Origin: Nanobdellota archaeon
Lineage (GTDB): Archaea > Nanobdellota > Nanobdellia > Pacearchaeales > GW2011-AR1
Length of the DNA: 23,690 nt
Assembly: GCA_018898425.1 (NCBI GenBank)
Contig: JAHIHG010000066.1
Location: 1-23,690 of the forward strand
Direction of reading: 5' to 3'
Positions 5,025 to 15,174 of this stretch are shown one piece after another. The notes beneath the pieces were generated by a model. That model searched no databases and was not told the origin of the DNA. It worked only from the letters and a program-made list of their open reading frames with translations. The position numbers and the translations under genes were made by a program. How positions within the stretch are numbered: position 1 is the first letter of the stretch; every line of letters begins with the position of its first letter.

Positions 5025-6050
5025 TTAACTTCCCCCAAATCTTCTTTTTCTTTTTCCAAAAGATTTAATTGCCTTTCTCAAATCCCTTGGTTTAAATGAG
5101 GGAAAATGTTTTTTCACAAAACATAATTCAGCATAAACCCCTTGATAAGGCATAATTCCAGAAAGTCTTTGCTCACCAGAAGTCCTGATAATCATATCAG
5201 GATCAGGAATATCAGAACTATCCAGATATTTTTTAAAATCTTCTTCATCAATTTTCTTTTTTTTACTATTCAGGATTTTATTTACTGCTCTTACTATTTC
5301 ATCTCTCCCGCCATAATCAAGGCAAAACTGAATATTAAAATCAGAATAATTTTTTGATTCTTTTTCTAATTTTACTAACTCCTCTTTTAATTTCTTAGGA
5401 AATCTGTCTTTTCTTCCAAAATGTCTGAATCTTATTTTATGCTTATGAATAACCTTTCTTAAATCTTCTAAATTTTTAAAAAAAAGTTTAAATAAATTAT
5501 CAATTTCCTCTTTACCTCTTTTCCAATTTTCTGTTGAAAAACCCCACAAAGAAACATATTTTACCCCTAACCCTCTTGCTTCATTAAATAAAGAAAATAA
5601 ATTATCAAAATCAGCTGCCTTGTCATGCCCTTTTAATTTTTCAAGCCCTCTTTTTTTTGCCCACCTTCTATTTCCATCAGGAATAATAACTAAATGTAAA
5701 GGAGGAATAAACTTGCTTTTTTGAAAAGATTTGATTAAATTTGTTCCAGACTTAAATTTATCTAAAAAATAAGAATCTTTTTTTAAAATTTTAAAATCAG
5801 AATATTTTTCTAAAATTTTTATTTCTTTAATATTTAAATCCCTTACAAAACAGATTCCTTTAAAAGATTTTAACCAGGAAATGAATTTATCCAAATTTTC
5901 TTTATTTCCCTGAACAAGAACTAAAACACTTCCATCAGCCAAGTTTTCAACAAAACCATTTAATTGATTATTTTTTGCAAATCTTTTTATTCTTTCTCTA
6001 AATAAAACTCCTTGCACTCTTCCATAAATTTTTATTTCTAATTCTTGCAT
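5025..6050 (-). CDS. uppS: acylphosphatase-like domain fused to a cis-prenyltransferase (undecaprenyl-diphosphate synthase family)
   Basis: - N-terminus: IYGRVQGVLFR...NGFVENLADGSVLVLVQG matches the acylphosphatase signatures.
- C-terminus: IIPDGNRRWAKKRG, GFSTENWKR and IRTSGEQRLSG match the UPPS signatures.
- Start set at Met23 (cat at 6048-6050), with an A/T TATA-like box (ttttaaaa) about 30 nt upstream. Confidence 0.85.
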   Translation of the reverse strand: MQELEIKIYGRVQGVLFRERIKRFAKNNQLNGFVENLADGSVLVLVQGNKENLDKFISWLKSFKGICFVRDLNIKEIKILEKYSDFKILKKDSYFLDKFKSGTNLIKSFQKSKFIPPLHLVIIPDGNRRWAKKRGLEKLKGHDKAADFDNLFSLFNEARGLGVKYVSLWGFSTENWKRGKEEIDNLFKLFFKNLEDLRKVIHKHKIRFRHFGRKDRFPKKLKEELVKLEKESKNYSDFNIQFCLDYGGRDEIVRAVNKILNSKKKKIDEEDFKKYLDSSDIPDPDMIIRTSGEQRLSGIMPYQGVYAELCFVKKHFPSFKPRDLRKAIKSFGKRKRRFGGS

Positions 6051-6120
6051 AATTAAATCAATTGAAATTACTCTTTTAAAAGTTTTGAAAACATAAAATC
6101 CAATTTCTATAATCAAATAT

Positions 6121-6288: not shown

Positions 6289-9200
6289 TTAAAAAAATTC
6301 ACTAAGAGGTTTTTGCTTCTCCAATTCTTTCCCAAAAATACTCTCAATATATCTTTTTACAAGTTCAAGATTTTGCTGTACATATGGTGAAAGGTCATAT
6401 TTTTTTGCTAAATCCAATGCAGGTTCTAGATATTTTTTAATTCCTCCTTCATGAATTGTAAAAATTAATTTCCCATTGCATTTAGGACAAGTTCCTTTTA
6501 AGGGAGGTCTTCTTATTATTTCATTACAAGCAACACACCTAAATTCCTGCATTGAAAATTTTCTTAAATTACCTCTCAAATCCCTAATAAAATGTCTTTC
6601 AATTACAAGTGTTGCTGTTGCAGTAGTATCTGCTGCCCTTATTCTTTCAACAAGTTCCATCTGATGCTGAACCTTTTCCTGCATTGTGGCTAAAAGCTTA
6701 TAAGAAGAGCAAGGAACCCCGTTATTAAAATCTGTTGTGTCATGAGTAAACCCTGCCCCAATAAAAGGATTTTCTCCTTTTCTTAAAATCTCTTTAACAT
6801 TATGTATTTTTAATTTTGAAGAATGTTCTTTTTTTTCAGCAAGTTCATACAATTCCAAAGGATATTCATAAACAAATTCAAAATCAAGTATCTGATCATC
6901 AACTTCTCCTGCATCTATTTTAGCATTCAAAACTAAAGGAGCATCTTGTGTTCCTCCCCTGTGACTTGGCAAAAATTCTCGTGAAAAATTAAGCAAAACA
7001 TCTCCTAAAAGCATAATAGCTGCCTCATCTCCATCACACCTCGCATTTATAATTTGTTCCCCCCATAAAACATTTTTATCCTCTTCACTCTCCCATTCCA
7101 CTTCAAAACAATATGAAGGAATTTTTTCTTTAAAAAAAACAACTTCTTTAATTATATCTACAAAAATATCATTCTCTTTTTCTAAACTAAAAAATTTATG
7201 ATTATATTTAATTTTTCTTTTTCTGCAATTTTTAAATTCAACATTTTTTATTAAAGCCAATTTTCTTTTATTCGCCGGATTTAAAATTTTAACTATTCCA
7301 TAAAAATCTTCTCCACTATAAACAAGATGCTGAAGAATATGCTTTTTTGGTTCCTTATTAAGCTCTTTATATCTTTCTAAAACCTTTTTTCCAGGGAGTC
7401 GCTCATTAGTTTTGCTAAATCTTCCAAATAATCCGAATTTACAACCTAATAAAGAAATGCCATCAAGAAGCTTCCTGCTAACAGAATAAAAACAGATAAA
7501 TTTTCTTTTACCATATACAATAGTCCCATCACCATCAAAATAACAAGATAAATAAGCCCTTACTTTTTTTTCAGAAACATTAAAAATAATGTTTGGAACT
7601 CTTTTCTCATAAGCACCACCACCAGCATCAAAACAATATTTAAATAAATAATAAACAAGTTTATTGCAAATAGTGATTTTAGTTTTATCCTCGCCAAAAC
7701 TAGGAATTAATCCAAAAGCACCTTTGATTGAAGATTCCAATTTTCTCCTTTGCTCTTTATCTATAATCCTAAAACAAATTTGTGACACAGTTTTTGTCTG
7801 CCTAGAATGCCCTTCAGCAGAATAATAACCCAAAACATTCATTAAATCCTCACCAACCTTAAACATTAAATCCCATTTTTTATTATTAAAAATAGTTCTT
7901 ATCTTTGCTGTTTTGGGGATGTCTTGCCACTTCATCAAACCATGATCAATAAATTTAAGCACATGATTTAAAGGAACTAATTTATACCAATCAGATAAAT
8001 TATTAAAATCATTATTAATATTAAACAATTTAATAAATTTAGATATGCCTACTTTTTTTACTAATTTCTTAAAAAATTCTTTGGCATCAACAACTCTTAC
8101 TTTAAATAATTCTTTTTCAGGAAGATTCTCTGATAAAAGTTTTGGAAGAAAAACCTCTTCAATTAAATTACTCTTAACATCAAATTTATTAATTAAAGCT
8201 ATTCTGTCTCCTTTTTTTATTTCGCCTGCTTTTTTTACTTGAAAATTATTTTTTTTATCAAGATAAATAAATTTGTGCCTTGGGGTCATAACTTGTTCTC
8301 TTCCACTAGAAGTCTTTATCTTAACCCATTTTTCAGGCGGAGCTCCTTTAATAAAATATTTAATCTTTTTTTTCTTCAACTTCTTGCTTACAGGATCAAC
8401 CCCAAATGCATAAAGCTCTTTATCTAAATCAACCCTAATAGTACCATAAGAATCAATCTTTCTTGTCTTATGTCCCTTCTCAATTAAATTTTCAACATAA
8501 TTTCCTATTGCCTCATTTTTAACTTCTCCATTATCAGAATAAATAAAATTTGTCATAGGATAAACACAATCTCTTCTAATAGCTGCATGCATATATGGGC
8601 TGGCAAACAAACCCAAAGTATTTGAAAAACCAATAAATCTGCAAATAACTCCTGCACAATTATGAGGAGCCATACAAACACCTAATTGCCCCACTAAATC
8701 TTCTCTTTTTTTAACATTATAAAAAGATTTTAATTTATAAAAATTTACAAGCAAATCATCAACAAAATTACAAATATTCATAAAAACATCTTCTCCTTTC
8801 TCATCTATTGTTTGTGAAAAATTTGGAATAAGAACATCATGAGGCATTAACTCTAAAATTTGTTCTTCATTAACAAGCTCCTTTCCATGAATATCTTTAT
8901 CATAACCTAATTCTTTTAATTTTTTCACACTCGTAAAAATTTCTTTTGGTTTAAAACACACCAAGGGTAATTCAGTTGCATCAAATCTTATTGTTCCATC
9001 TTTATTTACTTGCAAATTATGTTTTGCTCTTAAAACTCCTTTTGAAAGATTTTCAAGAGCATGATTTGTTGAAGAAGTTGTTCTAATTCCTTTAATCAAA
9101 AGAGGAGATTCAGATTTAATTATATTTAATTTTTGAATAGCTTTGTCAAAATAATGCATTATATCTAAATCCTGAACACAATATTGCGTTCCTTCTTCTT

Positions 9201-11286
9201 TTTCTTCATTAACTCTTTTAAAAGATTTTTCCTTATTTTTATAAAAATAATATTTTTTCCTGCATTTTCCCCCACAATCTTCGCAACAAGGATAAATAGT
9301 TTCTTTCTTGCATTTTTCACAATAATAAAGAGGAAACAAGCTTCTTACTTTCCCCTCTTCACATGCAGCCTGCACACTCCTCAATCTTCCTCCTTCTTTT
9401 CCAATAGGAAATAAAACATTCGGGCTTCCTGCTAATTTTCTTAATTTTGCTTTTTCAGGCCTACCCATTCTTGTTCCAATAAAATCTCCTGCTTTGTCTT
9501 TTATTTCAAATTCTGAAAAAGAATTTATGATTTCTAAAATATCTTTATTTAAATCAAATGTTTCTTTGATAACAGAATTTTTAAGAGAAAAATCTGTATT
9601 ATTTAACAAATTTAAATTCAATCCAAGATTAGCCAACAAAGATTTACTATTTTCTTTATTTAAAACAACATTTTCAATACTAACCTGATGTTCAATACCT
9701 AATAACTCCAAAGCTCTTTTACCTAATTTAAATTTTTCTTGTTCTAGTTTGTTAAAAGGAAAAATTATCCTCCTGTCTCTTATTACAGAGTGATGTAACC
9801 AATCAATAAAATTTAAAAATTGCTCTTTAGAAATTTCAGTCCAGTAAAAAATAAAATTTGGATGCAAAGGAATTTTAAATTTCTGACTTAATTCAACTGC
9901 TTTTTCAAAATCAACATTAAAATAATCTATTTCATTTTCTATTTCCTTAGATTTTGTTCTTAAATTAAGAGCCCACCATTCCTCAACATAACCTGGTTTA
10001 ATCAAAGTTGCATTTCTATTTGCCAAATCGCTAAAAGGAAACAAAATATCCCCTAAATAAATAATTTCTTCAATATCTGGATAAATTTGTTTAGCTTCTT
10101 CTTTTGTTTTTATTTTTTTTACACTTCCGCTAATTAATTTCACAATAGGTCCTTCAATAGAATCGCAAGAAGTAGTTACACACCCTTTAGTTGGTTTTTC
10201 TATTTTTAATTGAGTTCCTATTGCAATAAATCCATCGGTAATAGCCATTGTAGCAGGATGAATAGAGGCAGCACTAAAACCTGACACCCTACTCCTACCA
10301 TACCTAAATCTAAAGCCTCCTGAACAAGAAGGATGCCCAAAAACAGGCCTTCCAGCAACTAAATCCTTTATATAAGTTGGAGAAGCATCTGCTTTTCCTT
10401 TTTCTCTTTTTTCATGTAATTTAATATAATCTTCTAAAAAATCAAAACCTGTTGTTTTAATTCCATTTTTTTTAACACCTGCCAATAGTCTAAATCCTTT
10501 AGCAGCTTTTTGAGCTAATCCTTCTGCTAAAATCAAACAAAAACCACTTCTAAGAAAATTAGTATTAACTCTCTCAAGATTTTTATAATTAGAAACCTCT
10601 AGTTTTTCAGAAGCATCTCCTGCAACCTGGATAGGAATATGCCTTGCTAAAAAAAGTGTTTCCTCTTCTGTAGGCATATATTGCAAATTTGTAATTCTAT
10701 CATGAAAATCCCGTAATTCTGCATAAGTTCTTTTTATCTCTTCTTCAGTTGCATCATATTTTGCATAACCAAACAATTCCCTTAGATAATCTATGAGCAT
10801 TAGCACAACACAAGAAGCAGTAGTTCCAGCACTTCTAATTGGTCCTGAAAAACAAGCAATAAAATAGTCTTTTCCTTCTCTTGTTTTACCTAATTTTAAT
10901 TCAGTAAAGCCTTCAATTGGAGAAGAAACAACTCCTAAAGTAACATATGCAAAACCAATTCTTATTCCTGCATCAATTGCCTGCAATAAAGTTTCAAACC
11001 CGCAAAATTTTTGTTTAGCCACCTCTTCTGCAATCTTAAAAGCCACAGTTGTATCTAATTTCCCATATTCTTTTTCTAATTCAAGAATTCTTTTTGCAAT
11101 TCCAGAATTCATCATTTGAGGATAAATAGTTGAAATCAATCCCACAACTTTTTCAGCCATAGACATTGCCAAAGGAATTTCAACCTTATCAACAGGATCT
11201 AGTCCCTTGCTTCTTGCCTCTTCAGCAAGCTCATAGACATTTCTAACTTCTTTTTCAATATTTTTAAAATATAATTCTGTGTTCAT
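6289..11286 (-). CDS. polC: DNA polymerase II (PolD) large subunit DP2, interrupted by an intein
   Basis: 1665-aa ORF.
- Active-site region: PYMHAAIRRD[intein]CDGDEAAIMLLGDVLLNFS, compared with remembered HAAKRRNCDGDED...LLNFS.
- Internal Zn finger: CEKC...CCEDCGGKC.
- C-terminal Zn finger: CVACN...CPKCNGK.
- The host protein without the intein is 1155 aa. Confidence 0.93.
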   Translation of the reverse strand: MNTELYFKNIEKEVRNVYELAEEARSKGLDPVDKVEIPLAMSMAEKVVGLISTIYPQMMNSGIAKRILELEKEYGKLDTTVAFKIAEEVAKQKFCGFETLLQAIDAGIRIGFAYVTLGVVSSPIEGFTELKLGKTREGKDYFIACFSGPIRSAGTTASCVVLMLIDYLRELFGYAKYDATEEEIKRTYAELRDFHDRITNLQYMPTEEETLFLARHIPIQVAGDASEKLEVSNYKNLERVNTNFLRSGFCLILAEGLAQKAAKGFRLLAGVKKNGIKTTGFDFLEDYIKLHEKREKGKADASPTYIKDLVAGRPVFGHPSCSGGFRFRYGRSRVSGFSAASIHPATMAITDGFIAIGTQLKIEKPTKGCVTTSCDSIEGPIVKLISGSVKKIKTKEEAKQIYPDIEEIIYLGDILFPFSDLANRNATLIKPGYVEEWWALNLRTKSKEIENEIDYFNVDFEKAVELSQKFKIPLHPNFIFYWTEISKEQFLNFIDWLHHSVIRDRRIIFPFNKLEQEKFKLGKRALELLGIEHQVSIENVVLNKENSKSLLANLGLNLNLLNNTDFSLKNSVIKETFDLNKDILEIINSFSEFEIKDKAGDFIGTRMGRPEKAKLRKLAGSPNVLFPIGKEGGRLRSVQAACEEGKVRSLFPLYYCEKCKKETIYPCCEDCGGKCRKKYYFYKNKEKSFKRVNEEKEEGTQYCVQDLDIMHYFDKAIQKLNIIKSESPLLIKGIRTTSSTNHALENLSKGVLRAKHNLQVNKDGTIRFDATELPLVCFKPKEIFTSVKKLKELGYDKDIHGKELVNEEQILELMPHDVLIPNFSQTIDEKGEDVFMNICNFVDDLLVNFYKLKSFYNVKKREDLVGQLGVCMAPHNCAGVICRFIGFSNTLGLFASPYMHAAIRRDCVYPMTNFIYSDNGEVKNEAIGNYVENLIEKGHKTRKIDSYGTIRVDLDKELYAFGVDPVSKKLKKKKIKYFIKGAPPEKWVKIKTSSGREQVMTPRHKFIYLDKKNNFQVKKAGEIKKGDRIALINKFDVKSNLIEEVFLPKLLSENLPEKELFKVRVVDAKEFFKKLVKKVGISKFIKLFNINNDFNNLSDWYKLVPLNHVLKFIDHGLMKWQDIPKTAKIRTIFNNKKWDLMFKVGEDLMNVLGYYSAEGHSRQTKTVSQICFRIIDKEQRRKLESSIKGAFGLIPSFGEDKTKITICNKLVYYLFKYCFDAGGGAYEKRVPNIIFNVSEKKVRAYLSCYFDGDGTIVYGKRKFICFYSVSRKLLDGISLLGCKFGLFGRFSKTNERLPGKKVLERYKELNKEPKKHILQHLVYSGEDFYGIVKILNPANKRKLALIKNVEFKNCRKRKIKYNHKFFSLEKENDIFVDIIKEVVFFKEKIPSYCFEVEWESEEDKNVLWGEQIINARCDGDEAAIMLLGDVLLNFSREFLPSHRGGTQDAPLVLNAKIDAGEVDDQILDFEFVYEYPLELYELAEKKEHSSKLKIHNVKEILRKGENPFIGAGFTHDTTDFNNGVPCSSYKLLATMQEKVQHQMELVERIRAADTTATATLVIERHFIRDLRGNLRKFSMQEFRCVACNEIIRRPPLKGTCPKCNGKLIFTIHEGGIKKYLEPALDLAKKYDLSPYVQQNLELVKRYIESIFGKELEKQKPLSEFF
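7039..8568 (-). mobile_element. 510-aa intein with a LAGLIDADG homing-endonuclease domain, inside PolD DP2
   Basis: - Cys1 (tgt, plus-strand aca at 8566-8568) begins CVYPMTNF.
- Block B TxxH: MTPRHKF.
- LAGLIDADG motifs: LMNVLGYYSAEGHS and RAYLSCYFDGDGTI.
- Block F/G: SYCFEVEW...NVLWGEQIINAR, followed by Cys+1 (7036-7038).
- The C-terminal blocks align with the remembered P. abyssi PolII intein end (NVIINENIVTHQ|C). Confidence 0.85.
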
Positions 11287-11296
11287 TTTTCTATTT

Positions 11297-11863
11297 TCAT
11301 CCTAATAACAACATTGCTGCCTCATATTTTAGTTTAATTAACTTTCTTGATTCTTCTAATTCAATTTGATTCCATTTATTTTGCAATTTATTTTTGATCG
11401 AATTTCTTGCTTCTTCTAAAGATTTCTTCTCATACACAAGAGTTGTAAGAAATTGTTTTGAGATGTTATTAAAAGCATCTAAACTATCTGCTTCTGCGAT
11501 TATCTTGGCCTCAATAAATTCTCTTTGATTATTTTCTTCTTGTGAACCCCTATGATTTAAAATACAAATTTTAATTTTTTCAATTTTTTCCTGTGGATAA
11601 TTTAATTCATTTAATTTTTCTTCAGCTATTTTTGCTCCAGTTATATGGTGGTTTTCTCTTCCAGAAATAATAGAGCCAATGTCATGAAGCCATGCAGCAA
11701 TTTCAACTAATTCAATATCAGCATTTAATTCTTCAGCCAATTTTTTTGCAATACTATGCATTGAAATAAAATGATATTTATATGCCTCAGGATAATTAGC
11801 ATTAGGCTTTTTACACTCTTCTTCTACAAATTTTCTAACCATTTCCACAATATTTTTTTCCAT
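11297..11863 (-). CDS. HD-domain metal-dependent phosphohydrolase
   Basis: 188 aa. Contains H...AAWLHDIGS (HD motif) and a later NHRG histidine. Its start overlaps the DP1 stop (TAATG). It sits between the two PolD subunit genes and ends in TGA. Confidence 0.75.
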   Translation of the reverse strand: MEKNIVEMVRKFVEEECKKPNANYPEAYKYHFISMHSIAKKLAEELNADIELVEIAAWLHDIGSIISGRENHHITGAKIAEEKLNELNYPQEKIEKIKICILNHRGSQEENNQREFIEAKIIAEADSLDAFNNISKQFLTTLVYEKKSLEEARNSIKNKLQNKWNQIELEESRKLIKLKYEAAMLLLG

Positions 11864-12483
11864 TATTCAAAATCCAAAATTTTTATTTCTCTTGTTTTTA
11901 AATTAAACATAGGCACCTTGCAATGGTCTGGTGTATTTCCAAATTTTTCCTGATAAGGAGTCATAGCTTCCCAACAAGAAGTTGAAATAACTAAAATATT
12001 ATTATAATACGCAACAGCGCTTTTGTGCGTATGAGCTGCAACAAAAATATCTGGAATGTCTTTTATTATCAAGGGATCTTTTTCAAGAGGAAAATACTGG
12101 ATAGATTTATGTGTTGGAGCTAAATGTCTATTTTTTAAAAGATATTTCATAATTTCCTCTGGGCAATTCATAGCTTTTTTTAAAATTAATTTAGAAACAT
12201 TATTTGCATAATAAGGAAAAGAAAACCCATGATAAGTCAAAATATCAAAACCTGAAAACCCCTCAATTGCTCCAATATTAACTTTGCAAGGATTAGTTGT
12301 TAAAATAACATTTTTCATATCATATAATGGCCAGGCATATTTTTCATCAAAAAGTGGTTGAGGCTCAATTAATCTAACACAATCATGATTTCCAGGAGAA
12401 ATTATTATAATAATATCTTCTCTTATTTGTTTTAATAACTCAACAAGCCCTAAAAATTGCTCTTCAAGGTCTTTTATTTCCAA
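11863..12483 (-). CDS. polB: PolD small subunit DP1, C-terminal fragment (calcineurin/Mre11-like phosphoesterase motifs III-V)
   Basis: Contains IIISPGNHD (the GNHD motif), TYHGF and AAHTHKS. DP1-like sequence continues in frame upstream to 12528 (DIITGIGNYPNQEKD), directly after the TGA at 12529-12531. The TTG start in the ORF track is probably not a real start. Confidence 0.8.
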   Translation of the reverse strand: MEIKDLEEQFLGLVELLKQIREDIIIIISPGNHDCVRLIEPQPLFDEKYAWPLYDMKNVILTTNPCKVNIGAIEGFSGFDILTYHGFSFPYYANNVSKLILKKAMNCPEEIMKYLLKNRHLAPTHKSIQYFPLEKDPLIIKDIPDIFVAAHTHKSAVAYYNNILVISTSCWEAMTPYQEKFGNTPDHCKVPMFNLKTREIKILDFE

Positions 12484-12528
12484 ATCTTTCTCTTGATTTG
12501 GATAATTTCCAATGCCTGTAATAATGTC

Positions 12529-13539
12529 TCAAACAATAAATAAATATTTTATTTTTTTTACTTCAGGGGTATTTGGAACCTTTCCATTTAAATAATCAAT
12601 AAATTTCAAAAAATTCTCCCTTAAAAATAACTTACTTCCAAAATGCAAATCCCCTATAAAAAGAATAGATTCATCAACCAAAGATTTTTTTCTTTCTAAA
12701 ATCATTGCTTCAGGAAAAATAACATCATTTACAAAAACAATCTCTTTATTACCAGAGCAATTAATACCAATAACAGAATCTAAAGTTATCTCTTCAGCTT
12801 TTTCATAAAGTTCTTTTTTAGAACTATTCACTAAAACTTTTATTTTTCCTGTTAAATCTTCTAATTCAAACAAAATGTTTTTATTTTTAGTTATTTTTTT
12901 ATCAGAAACAATGCCAATTATAGAAATGTTTTGCCTATTTTCTGAAATTTTATTAATTGAAACTAAATTTTTTAAACAAGAGTTTTCCTGTAAAATATTT
13001 TTTAATTCAACAAACCTATTTTTAAAATAACTAACAAAATTTTTTACTTCTAATTTTTTTCCAACAAAAGGTGTTGCAGACATAATTTTAACACTTTCAA
13101 AAGAATTTTGTTTTTTCCCAATATCAAAATTCATCGTTTTTTGGGTTTTTTTAATCTCTTTATCAATAGTGTCATTTATAGAATTGTTTATAGAATTGTT
13201 TATAGAATTATCTGTAACCTCTCCCTTACCAAAATCTTCTACAAATTTATTCACAATTTCTTTTTCTTTTATTATTTCTATGCTTAAACCAAGTTTAATT
13301 TTTAATTTATCTATTGTTTTCTTATTTTTATTAGGAATATTTAAAAAAATTTGTTCAACTTTCTCCTTGTTTTTATTTAAAATTTTTTTAGTTATGATTC
13401 TCTGGCTTGTTTGTTTTGTTATTTGTTCTATAAAAATCTTAATAGACTCTATGTCTTCAAACTCATTAAATAACTTTAAAAGATCATTATCTAATAAAAA
13501 TCCTTTATGTGAGCAAAAACTAAGTATTTCTTTATTCAT
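12529..13539 (-). CDS. polB: PolD small subunit DP1, N-terminal fragment (N-terminal domain, OB-fold region, phosphoesterase motif I), ending at an in-frame TGA
   Basis: - ILFIGDLHFGS is motif I (DxH).
- KYLFIV is followed by TGA exactly where the Gly of motif II (GDxxDG) is expected.
- The two fragments plus the linker give a collinear DP1 of about 558 aa.
- The start lies 5 nt downstream of the cdc6 stop. Confidence 0.85.
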   Translation of the reverse strand: MNKEILSFCSHKGFLLDNDLLKLFNEFEDIESIKIFIEQITKQTSQRIITKKILNKNKEKVEQIFLNIPNKNKKTIDKLKIKLGLSIEIIKEKEIVNKFVEDFGKGEVTDNSINNSINNSINDTIDKEIKKTQKTMNFDIGKKQNSFESVKIMSATPFVGKKLEVKNFVSYFKNRFVELKNILQENSCLKNLVSINKISENRQNISIIGIVSDKKITKNKNILFELEDLTGKIKVLVNSSKKELYEKAEEITLDSVIGINCSGNKEIVFVNDVIFPEAMILERKKSLVDESILFIGDLHFGSKLFLRENFLKFIDYLNGKVPNTPEVKKIKYLFIV

Positions 13540-13544
13540 TTTAT

Positions 13545-14756
13545 TTAGGTATAATTTAAAGAATCTTCAATTATTTTTTTTGCCTGTTCAATTATACCTT
13601 TAGTGATTGCTAATTTTATCTCCCTCATTCTTCCACCTCTTCCTTTTGAAATAACTTTTACATTAATTATTCCAAGCATATCAAACTCTTGAATAATATC
13701 ACTTATTCTTCTTTGTGTTAAAATTTCTGATTTATTTTTAAGACATAATTCTTGATAATTATTATAAACATCTCCTGTAAAAATAGGCTCATTTTTTTGA
13801 TTTTCATTTAATTTTATTATAGAATGTAAAACAAGTTGAAATTGTTTAGGCTCTGATTTAATAATATCTAAAATTTTATCTCTTTCTAATTTACTATTAG
13901 CCTCATCTATATGCCTTACATAAATTTTTTTAGAAGAATCTCTTTCAGCTAATTCTCCTGCAACCCTTAGTAAATCCAGGGCTCTTCTTGCATCACCATG
14001 CTCCCTTGCAGCAAAAGCAGCACATTTAGCAATAACCCCTTCTTGAACAACATTTTCCTTAAAAACCTCATCAGACCTTTTTTTTAAAATTTCCTGTAAT
14101 TGTAAGGCATTATAAGGTGGAAAAACTATTTCTTCTTCTGAAAGTGAGCTTCTAACTCTTGGATCAATATTTTCTAAAAAAGTTAAATCATTACTTATTC
14201 CAACAATACAAATCTGAGTTTTAGAAAGTTCAGAATTTAATCTAGTTAAATTATATAAAAAATCATTAGAAATTTTCTTAACAGTCTGGTCTATTTCATC
14301 AAAAATTAAAACAATTAACTGCTTTTCAGAATCTATAATTTCAATAAATTTGCTATAAACTGCTTGAGTAGGCAAACCAGTAGAAGGAACCTCTCCACCT
14401 AATTTTTTAATAAGTTCTGCTAAAATCCTATATTCAGTATCAGAAATTTTTTTTAATTTACAGTTTAAATATTTTATTTTTAATTTAAAATCATTATTTT
14501 CATTAACCCTTTTTAATAATTTATCCCTAACATATTTTATTGAAAGTGTTTTACCAGTACCTGTTTTTCCATAAAGAAACAAATTACTAGATTTTTCACC
14601 TCTTAACACAGGAGCAAGTATTGAAGCAATTTGTTTAATTTGTTCACTTCTATGAGGAATATCCTCTGGTTGATAATTATTTTGTAAAAGAGATTTATTT
14701 TTAAAAATCAAATTTTTATCAAAAGATTCAAATATATTGTCTAATTCTGTTCCCAT
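13545..14756 (-). CDS. cdc6: Orc1/Cdc6 replication initiator (AAA+ with C-terminal winged helix)
   Basis: - Walker A: LYGKTGTGKT.
- Walker B: LIVLIFDEID.
- Sensor and winged-helix region: GDARRALDLLR, and ...RGGRMREIKL at the C-terminus.
- It lies immediately next to the ORB-containing intergenic region. Confidence 0.93.
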   Translation of the reverse strand: MGTELDNIFESFDKNLIFKNKSLLQNNYQPEDIPHRSEQIKQIASILAPVLRGEKSSNLFLYGKTGTGKTLSIKYVRDKLLKRVNENNDFKLKIKYLNCKLKKISDTEYRILAELIKKLGGEVPSTGLPTQAVYSKFIEIIDSEKQLIVLIFDEIDQTVKKISNDFLYNLTRLNSELSKTQICIVGISNDLTFLENIDPRVRSSLSEEEIVFPPYNALQLQEILKKRSDEVFKENVVQEGVIAKCAAFAAREHGDARRALDLLRVAGELAERDSSKKIYVRHIDEANSKLERDKILDIIKSEPKQFQLVLHSIIKLNENQKNEPIFTGDVYNNYQELCLKNKSEILTQRRISDIIQEFDMLGIINVKVISKGRGGRMREIKLAITKGIIEQAKKIIEDSLNYT

Positions 14757-14801
14757 TTTTAATTTAAATAAAATAAATTAAAAAATTTATACAATAAGAA
14801 T

Positions 14802-14827
14802 ACACACACAGTGATTTCCTATGGAAA
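14802..14827 (+). repeat. ORB-like box 1
   Basis: acacacacagtgATTTCCTATGGAAa. Confidence 0.65.
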
Positions 14828-14901
14828 ATCTTTTAAATTTAAATCATTCGTCAATAAAAAATTAAGTTATTATATAAAGTCTTATAACTACTAAAAAAGA
14901 A

Positions 14902-14924
14902 AAACACCTAAATTTCCTATGGAA
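14902..14924 (+). repeat. ORB-like box 2
   Basis: aaacacctaaATTTCCTATGGAA. Confidence 0.6.
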
Positions 14925-15000
14925 TATGTTTTTTTATTTTTAAAATTCCTAATCCCTTAATACTTACTTTATTATCTTCTTTTGATTTTATACTCTTTTT

Positions 15001-15125
15001 TCTTTTTTATTATTATTATTATAATTATTATATACTATATTTTTTTATAATAATAATAATAATAATAATAAACTATATACTATATAATATATATAAATAT
15101 AAATTAAATATAAATTAAAAATTTC
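15001..15125. repeat. A/T-only duplex-unwinding-element candidate with inverted trinucleotide tracts
   Basis: (tta)n at about 15007-15030 and the complementary (taa)n at about 15046-15072, followed by tatata-type low complexity. Almost no G/C across the segment. Confidence 0.6.
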
Positions 15126-15145
15126 AAAAAATCCTTTTTAAATAC

Positions 15146-15174
15146 TTCCATACGAAATCAAAGGGTGAGTGTGT
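15146..15174 (-). repeat. ORB-like box 3 (inverted)
   Basis: The plus strand reads ttccatacgaaatcaaagggtgagtgtgt. The reverse complement is acacactcaccctttgATTTCGTATGGAA, facing boxes 1 and 2 across the A/T element. Confidence 0.6.

Follow-up and report, generated by a model that had tools for sequence, protein, structure and literature searches.

The PolD locus and its intein

The DNA considered here is a 23,690-nucleotide stretch from a Nanobdellota archaeon of the order Pacearchaeales (GenBank assembly GCA_018898425.1, contig JAHIHG010000066.1, positions 1 to 23,690 of the forward strand), and the whole of it is hereafter referred to as the window. On its reverse strand, the gene for DP2, the large subunit of DNA polymerase D (PolD), harbors an intein which interrupts the catalytic motif of the polymerase and ends in Ala-Arg, in place of the His-Gln or His-Asn expected at the end of an intein. 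The genes for the small PolD subunit, DP1, and for Cdc6/Orc1 are located in the same cluster (Table 1).

Table 1. Features of the PolD cluster and of loci carrying related inteins (positions refer to the window unless another locus is named)
Feature	Position	Strand	Remarks
PolD large subunit DP2 gene	6289..11286	(-)	Precursor 1665 aa, 1155 aa without intein; open reading frame and Pfam
510-aa intein, HINT splicing domain with nested LAGLIDADG homing endonuclease	7039..8568	(-)	Precursor residues 907-1416
Cys1, N-terminal nucleophile, block A	8566..8568	(-)	Invariant in the alignment of relatives
Block B TPRH (Thr95, His98)	8275..8286	(-)	T95 and H98 invariant across Arg-ending inteins
Additional helical segment	~7890..8080	(-)	Intein residues ~165-225
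LAGLIDADG motif 1, LGYYSAEGHS, catalytic Glu252	7807..7836	(-)	E252 and G253 invariant
LAGLIDADG motif 2, SCYFDGDGT, catalytic Asp347	7519..7548	(-)	G346, D347 and G348 invariant
Cys487, block F position 4 (SYCFEVEW)	7108..7110	(-)	Invariant in Arg-ending inteins
Lys498, at the block-F His position of Pho/Pab PolII inteins	7075..7077	(-)	12 positions before the terminus
Last eight intein residues (503-510), GEQIINAR	7039..7062	(-)	
C-terminal Ala509-Arg510 (gcg agg) in place of His-Gln/Asn	7039..7044	(-)	Codon reading and alignments; Arg510 codon AGG at 7039..7041
Cys+1 of the C-extein (CDGDE)	7036..7038	(-)	Sequence and 6KNB alignment
Intein of Woesearchaeota genome L001	L001 2211..3620		
Intein of Woesearchaeota genome L002	L002 5814..7223		
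P0169 mini-intein locus	L031 4001..7984		
P0165 DP2 intein, Asn-ending (cluster representative P0009)	L035/L036 3001..8331		
HD-domain protein gene between DP1 and DP2	11297..11863	(-)	Abuts the DP1 stop; ends 10 nt before the DP2 start
PolD small subunit DP1	11863..13539	(-)	One frame broken by an in-frame TGA at 12529..12531
cdc6/orc1 gene	13545..14756	(-)	
ORB-like boxes upstream of cdc6/orc1	14815..14826, 14913..14924, 15146..15157 (within 14796..15160)		Two exact copies and one inverted copy with one mismatch of TTTCCTATGGAA
AT-rich (TAA)n near-palindrome	15004..15072		Flanked by the ORB-like boxes
Prenyltransferase-acylphosphatase fusion	5025..6116	(-)	One open reading frame, TTG start

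The open reading frame (ORF) of the precursor matches the Pfam families PolC_DP2_N, PolC_DP2_central and PolC_DP2_cat together with Intein_splicing and LAGLIDADG_3; the Intein_splicing match (PF14890; score 45.4 bits, cutoff 35.8) identifies the HINT splicing domain, and the LAGLIDADG_3 match (PF14528; E=6e-12) identifies an intein-borne homing endonuclease with two motifs. After removal of the insert, DP2 aligns with the DP2 chains of PDB 6KNB and 6HMS at E=1e-116 to 1e-118. An AlphaFold2 (AF2) model of the intein, with a mean predicted local distance difference test score (pLDDT) of 81, matches the folds of intein structures with E down to 6e-26, the best matches being the PI-PkoII, TliVMA and PI-PfuI inteins, and its endonuclease fold also matches I-DmoI. 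An extra helical segment of ~45 aa (…AKEFFKKLVKKVG…WYKLVPLNHVLKFIDHGLMKWQDIP…), which follows the N-terminal splicing domain and precedes the endonuclease, is found in the window intein, P0001, P0006, P0011 and others, and is missing from P0002-P0004.

The junctions in DP2 read MHAAIRRD↓CVYPMT...NVLWGEQIINAR↓CDGDEAA (the arrows denote the splice points). The spliced protein aligns gaplessly over this junction with Thermococcus kodakarensis DP2 in 6KNB (hpyyhaakrrnCDGDEDAVMLL) and with Pyrococcus abyssi DP2, E about 1e-117, so the boundaries of the intein are exact. Likewise, the terminus of the Pab PolII intein in PDB 2LCJ, …KKYHNVIINENIVTHQ, matches that of the window intein, …EDKNVLWGEQIINAR, residue for residue. 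Thus, the insert possesses the HINT domain, Cys1, the T..H pair of block B, Cys+1 and the in-frame position, with a conserved host protein restored upon removal, all of which are typical of class 1 inteins, and lacks two further class 1 residues, an Asn, Gln or Asp at the C-terminus that can cyclise (position G:7 is Arg510) and the penultimate His (position G:6 is Ala509). The penultimate His is absent from ~5 % of functional inteins.

A preliminary description of the window, made from its letters, had placed a 510-aa LAGLIDADG intein at AAIRRD↓C…R↓CDGDE in PolD DP2, and the ORF, the Pfam matches and the gapless excision confirm it. Its other readings held as well: the insertion site is that of the Pab and Pho PolII inteins (spliced alignment, comparison with 2LCJ); Cys1, TPRH, both LAGLIDADG motifs and Cys+1 are where it had put them, as re-read in the sequence; the P. 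abyssi ending that it gave is the one in 2LCJ; and the replacement of the penultimate His by Ala and of the terminal Gln/Asn by Arg (codons aat gcg agg tgt) agrees with the alignment to 2LCJ. With a C-terminal Ala-Arg the standard succinimide or glutarimide chemistry is impossible, as was pointed out there. The suspicion that the boundary might be off by a few residues is dispelled by the gapless alignment of the spliced protein to a solved DP2.

Two other explanations of the terminal Arg were considered and rejected. A hidden junction at the Asn in position -3 would be no better, as the preliminary description had also judged, since Arg-ending tails carry N, Q, T, S or M there and the next residue is never a nucleophile. 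Codon reassignment is contradicted by AGG at universally conserved Arg positions of DP2 (GGFRFRYGRSR, GTRMGRPEKA, PSHRGGTQDAP), so AGG is not recoded, and by the use of four Arg codons in relatives. In addition, four ORFs of the window end with TGA, which occurs 0 times in the ~6000 codons of the remaining long ORFs; this confinement to ORF ends indicates that the genome is not recoded.

A group of DP2 inteins ending in arginine

The initial protein search returned 7 homologues with 41-62 % identity, all of which, where they reach the junction, end in …WGEQ(I/M)(I/L)N-x-R↓CDGDEA, and when the search was repeated with a broader profile, it yielded these 7 proteins again. The Arg ending is shared by 10 GTDB genomes (Woesearchaeota, Pacearchaeota) and 16 metagenome loci, with AGA, AGG or CGA as the terminal codon, and is thus present in 26/26 related genome and metagenome loci, as well as in 18 protein clusters. 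A profile search over 1.84 billion representative proteins revealed DP2-site inteins ending in Gln, Asn, Asp (once) or Arg. The distant Arg tails (…WGNQLFQIR, …LLNNQILTIR, …WHNQLLQIR, …LLGNGLYQIR; terminal codons CGG or CGA) come from a Thermoplasmatota metagenome-assembled genome (MAG), a lineage with DP2 on a 1.37-Mb contig and a contig of 72 % GC with haloarchaeal-type neighbour genes. Overall, the hosts include Woese- and Pacearchaeota, Nanoarchaeia, Thermoplasmatota and the halophile-like contig, and the group extends over at least three phyla.

In total, 35 distinct Arg-ending tails were found, all at the DP2 site, an invariance well beyond what chance would give; the Arg is encoded by AGA, AGG, CGA or CGG, and the GC content of the genomes is 27-72 %. 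Of 104 C-termini that were recognised as those of inteins among the proteins retrieved, likewise, only ones at the DP2 site have Arg. In a neighbour-joining (NJ) tree of 54 complete DP2-site inteins, the Arg-ending sequences cluster together, beside four sequences ending in Gln or Asn, and a DPANN subgroup together with the Asn-ending P0009 receives 71 % bootstrap support. As judged by these comparisons, the terminal Arg is a family trait, ancestral to the group, and not a one-off change.

Current reviews list Asn, Gln and Asp as the sole C-terminal residues of class 1 inteins (PMC4031507; PMC7664689) and count them among the few omnipresent residues of this class (PMC7664689). A description of an Arg-terminal intein was not found in the literature searches, from whose coverage most subscription journals were missing, so this absence is no proof.

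Coordinated changes at the site of the third splicing step

In the Pho PolII intein, the block-F His lies 3.4 Å from the carbonyl of the terminal Gln and is thought to activate its cyclisation (PMC8229266; PMC8175363). The corresponding residue, 12 positions before the terminus, is Lys in 17 and Arg in 18 of the 35 Arg tails; of 49 tails with another ending, 21 have His there and 2 have Lys. Penultimate His is found in 0/35 Arg tails, where position -2 is occupied by T, I, M, A, F, V, L or P. At the same time, Cys1, Thr95, His98, Tyr486 and Cys487 (F:4) are invariant in the aligned Arg-ending inteins, and so is Cys+1. The alignments therefore show that the apparatus of the third step has been altered in a coordinated way, with Gln/Asn replaced by Arg, the block-F His by Lys or Arg and the penultimate His by Thr or an aliphatic residue.

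Other candidate partners of the terminal Arg did not stand up to comparison. The Asp at position -1 could have been such a partner; RRD and RRN were each found with inteins ending in Arg, Gln and Asn. Trp81 and Cys F:4 were considered as catalytic residues specific to the Arg group and were discarded, both being common to neighbouring Gln- and Asn-ending sequences; of the other DP2 inteins, 38 % likewise have Cys F:4.

Selection, homing and a mini-intein

For unsaturated pairs, the ratio of nonsynonymous to synonymous substitution rates (dN/dS) is 0.05-0.16 in the splicing domain, 0.10-0.30 in the endonuclease and 0.02-0.19 in the exteins; by these ratios the intein and its endonuclease are shown to be under purifying selection. 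Signs of mobility come from two Woesearchaeota MAGs (L001 and L002), whose inteins diverge by 3.2 %, against 10.2 % for the flanking DP2 (Fisher p=9e-18). Identity shifts stepwise at the intein borders; this shift and the low divergence of the inteins point to homing, in which an Arg-ending intein was recently transferred horizontally. The two inteins also contain an internal patch of 84 % identity at about nt 500-650.

A 176-aa mini-intein (P0071/P0169; …NIINMR↓C) has lost the endonuclease and kept Cys1, T..H, the terminal Arg and Cys+1. Eighteen contigs, stemming from several samples, encode the P0169 protein (NCBI HLD10944.1) in identical form, and its locus (L031) is syntenic with the window, in the order Cdc6, intact DP1, DP2 and then TctA on the other strand. 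In this relative DP1 overlaps DP2 directly, and the HD-domain gene is not inserted between them. Intact DP1 was also found beside DP2 in the other examined lineages with Arg-ending inteins. For biochemistry, the P0169 mini-intein would be the handiest construct.

Collectively, conservation across phyla, the use of four synonymous codons, covariation at the step-3 site, purifying selection, persistence in the mini-intein and the homing signature indicate that the Arg terminus is not a product of decay. On the same grounds, the Arg is rejected as a sign of an inactive DP2, an option kept in the preliminary description, or of a decaying one, and the conclusion drawn there that such an intein could not splice finds no support as a general reading.

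Relationship to known inteins and intein-like domains

The closest described systems are the Pab and Pho PolII inteins (PDB 2LCJ, 5BKH, 7OEC), which share the host protein and the insertion point RRN↓CDGDE with the window intein and are matched by the profile of the Arg-ending group at E=3e-11 (2LCJ), 3e-9 (5BKH) and 9e-9 (7OEC). Both have Cys1, the TxxH of block B and Cys+1, and their 14 C-terminal residues align without gaps. The PolII inteins are themselves already atypical in that their terminal Gln forms a six-membered ring. They differ from the window intein in ending in His-Gln, with a His of block F close to this Gln (Ala-Arg with Lys at that position in the window), in being mini-inteins devoid of the LAGLIDADG endonuclease and in having Ser instead of Cys at F:4 (Pab PolII). 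In terms of the HINT plus LAGLIDADG architecture, the best structural and sequence matches are PI-PkoII (Tko Pol-2, PDB 2CW7), TliVMA and PI-PfuI, which are described class 1 inteins residing in other host proteins and at other insertion sites.

Natural departures from terminal Asn which still splice are represented by the Gln- and Asp-ending inteins (CIV RNR, Mma and Pab PolII, and others), and in some of these the atypical residue works better than Asn would, owing to compensating changes (PMC4031507). Their amide or carboxylate can be cyclised like that of Asn; in contrast, the Arg-ending inteins present a guanidinium, which is outside the class 1 omnipresent set (PMC7664689).

Class 3 inteins, distinguished by the WCT motif, resemble the Arg-ending ones in their invariant Cys at block F position 4. 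This is the sole match: class 3 inteins lack the N-terminal nucleophile and have Trp B:12, Thr G:5 and a terminal Asn, whereas the window intein has Cys1, Phe100 at B:12, Asn508 at G:5 and Arg, and thus does not belong to this class. Bacterial intein-like (BIL) domains are HINT domains with non-canonical C-terminal junctions, as here, and type A BIL domains ligate by the attack of a free amine (PMC4031507). They are bacterial, have no +1 nucleophile, occur in non-essential host contexts and lie outside conserved active sites; the window intein, with its invariant Cys+1 and its place in the DP2 catalytic motif, falls outside this family as well.

Possible routes of C-terminal cleavage

Taken as one proposition, it seems reasonably probable that the window intein is a member of a previously undescribed group of DP2 inteins with an invariable C-terminal Arg, and that it is a genuine, mobile intein located at the active-site insertion point of PolII (DP2), RR(D/N)↓CDGDE, splicing with a C-terminal cleavage that does not involve Asn, Gln or Asp. 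An Arg kept invariant under synonymous turnover, together with covariation, selection, recent mobility across diverged hosts and survival of endonuclease loss, suggests that these inteins most likely splice; this combination would not be seen in an element that had decayed or that blocked PolD. The first two steps would proceed as in class 1, i.e., an N-to-S acyl shift at Cys1 followed by transfer to Cys+1, and the Arg-Cys+1 bond would then be broken by chemistry other than Asn/Gln/Asp cyclisation.

As to the nature of this chemistry, a tentative proposal is that the terminal Arg cyclises to a delta-lactam and so resolves the branched intermediate, which would constitute a new class of splicing chemistry with an “arginine lyase” step. 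Here, N-epsilon of the Arg would attack its own backbone carbonyl, yielding a six-membered ring of the same size as the glutarimide of the Gln-ending PolII relatives; the attacking nitrogen would occupy the epsilon position in both cases (N-epsilon2 in Gln). The conserved neighbouring Lys or Arg and the apolar penultimate residue could lower the pKa of the guanidinium. Carboxyl-activated arginine readily gives a delta-lactam, as is well known in peptide chemistry, and the presence of only Arg, never Lys or His, in 35 tails argues that the terminal side chain itself matters. The evolutionary path could have been short: Gln would turn into Arg via CAR to CGR, one transition, with the block-F and penultimate residues retuned. 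Deep members of the Arg group still use CGA or CGG.

A number of points speak against these proposals. With a pKa above 12, the guanidinium is a poor nucleophile, and we know of no protein in which a peptide bond is cleaved by Arg cyclisation. The AF2 model is uninformative on Arg510 and gives no structural support: residues 503-510 have pLDDT <50, residues 495-499 are placed as a short helix and the strand of block G is left unplaced. A single Arg clade is weakly supported in the NJ tree, where all Arg-ending sequences plus P0009 receive 36 % bootstrap. The Asn-ending P0009/P0165 (…LILSSN↓C, encoded as agt agt aat tgc) falls within the Arg-ending inteins in the tree and keeps the block-F Lys; hence, this Lys is not strictly tied to Arg chemistry. 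The DP1 gene of the window carries a premature TGA, a point that concerns PolD of this genome only. Finally, support for the splicing of the Arg-ending inteins is indirect and comes from purifying selection, the homing signature and the retention of the mini-intein; of the three options left by the preliminary description, a non-canonical splicing route is the best supported one, as an inference.

The tree position of P0009/P0165 suggests an apparent reversion from Arg to Asn, and P0165 offers a natural comparison partner to the Arg-ending inteins.

An explanation which we hold to be doubtful rather than improbable retains splicing and denies the Arg its role as nucleophile, the Arg-Cys+1 bond being cleaved by another group. 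Cys487 could be this group, as could the thiol or amine of the freed Cys1 (with a thiolactone or a cyclic intein as the product), or an N-to-S shift at Cys+1 could be followed by hydrolysis or aminolysis like that in type A BIL domains; the Arg and the block-F Lys/Arg would then act as electrostatic or oxyanion catalysts, a role that two conserved basic residues at the scissile bond would fit. The invariance of Cys F:4 in the Arg-ending inteins and the use of this position by the nucleophile of class 3 inteins favour such a route, for which the ligation of type A BIL domains via a free alpha-amine provides a precedent (PMC4031507). However, the occurrence of Cys F:4 in the neighbouring Gln- and Asn-ending inteins and in other DP2 inteins (see above) means that it does not track the Arg. 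Moreover, a purely electrostatic terminus would be expected to be Lys or His in some cases, which is so in 0/35 tails.

It is improbable that the Arg-ending inteins do not ligate their exteins at all, so that the insert is retained, or that cleavage alone occurs and leaves DP2 nicked, in two pieces or insert-bearing, or that PolD is dispensable. DPANN genomes often have split or reduced genes, and DP1 in the window contains an in-frame stop, both of which would suit this explanation. It also gains from the fact that the described chemistry resolves no branched intermediate at Arg (PMC4031507; PMC7664689). Against it, the insert splits the catalytic motif RRN↓CDGDE, purifying selection on the exteins is strong (omega 0.02-0.19), DP1 is intact in the other lineages and Cys1, T..H and Cys+1 are invariant. 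The spread over at least three phyla with recent homing is hard to reconcile with an element that disables or splits an essential polymerase on arrival, and the mini-intein, even without its endonuclease, has been kept with all its splice-site residues.

An artefactual Arg or one due to a local lesion, whether through an error of sequencing, decay in the recent past, a boundary set wrongly or reassignment of AGG, could not have been excluded from one window by itself, the more so with a nonsense codon in the neighbouring DP1 gene, but this view is already refuted by the comparative data: Arg in every relative via AGA, AGG, CGA and CGG, AGG at the invariant Arg sites of DP2, TGA only at the ends of other ORFs, a gapless extein junction and a variable position -3.

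Genes around the intein-bearing DP2

In DP1, the sequence around the stop reads …KIKYLFIV*DIITGIGNYPNQ, where the TGA replaces the conserved Gly of the phosphoesterase GD motif; homologous loci have FIVGD, with Gly at the stop position and DP1 intact. The stop looks like a nonsense change from GGA to TGA; DP1 may be a pseudogene here, or the change may be an error or peculiar to a strain. The stop leaves some doubt on PolD in this genome and has no bearing on the Arg terminus.

Upstream of cdc6/orc1, boxes resembling origin recognition boxes (ORB) flank an AT-rich near-palindrome; these boxes and the AT-rich stretch, lying beside the cdc6-DP1-DP2 cluster, are probably a replication origin. Elsewhere in the window, a single ORF encodes an unusual fusion of a prenyltransferase of the undecaprenyl-diphosphate-synthase type with an N-terminal acylphosphatase domain. 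Rfam and tRNA scans of the window gave no matches.

Implications

The cyclisation of Asn, Gln or Asp is the textbook third step of protein splicing. If the Arg-ending inteins do employ a new cleavage chemistry, this would add to the self-cleaving tags and ligation reagents at hand, and the definition of block G in intein-finding software would change, as inteins ending in Arg may now be annotated as degenerate. Should cyclisation of the Arg itself prove true, a guanidino nucleophile would for the first time be seen to drive the cleavage of a peptide bond in nature. For the archaea that harbor them, natural, mobile and selected inteins with an invariant Arg in an essential replicative polymerase would mean either an undescribed mode of bond cleavage or a polymerase tolerating an unspliced insert in its active site, and both alternatives are directly testable with the 176-aa mini-intein.

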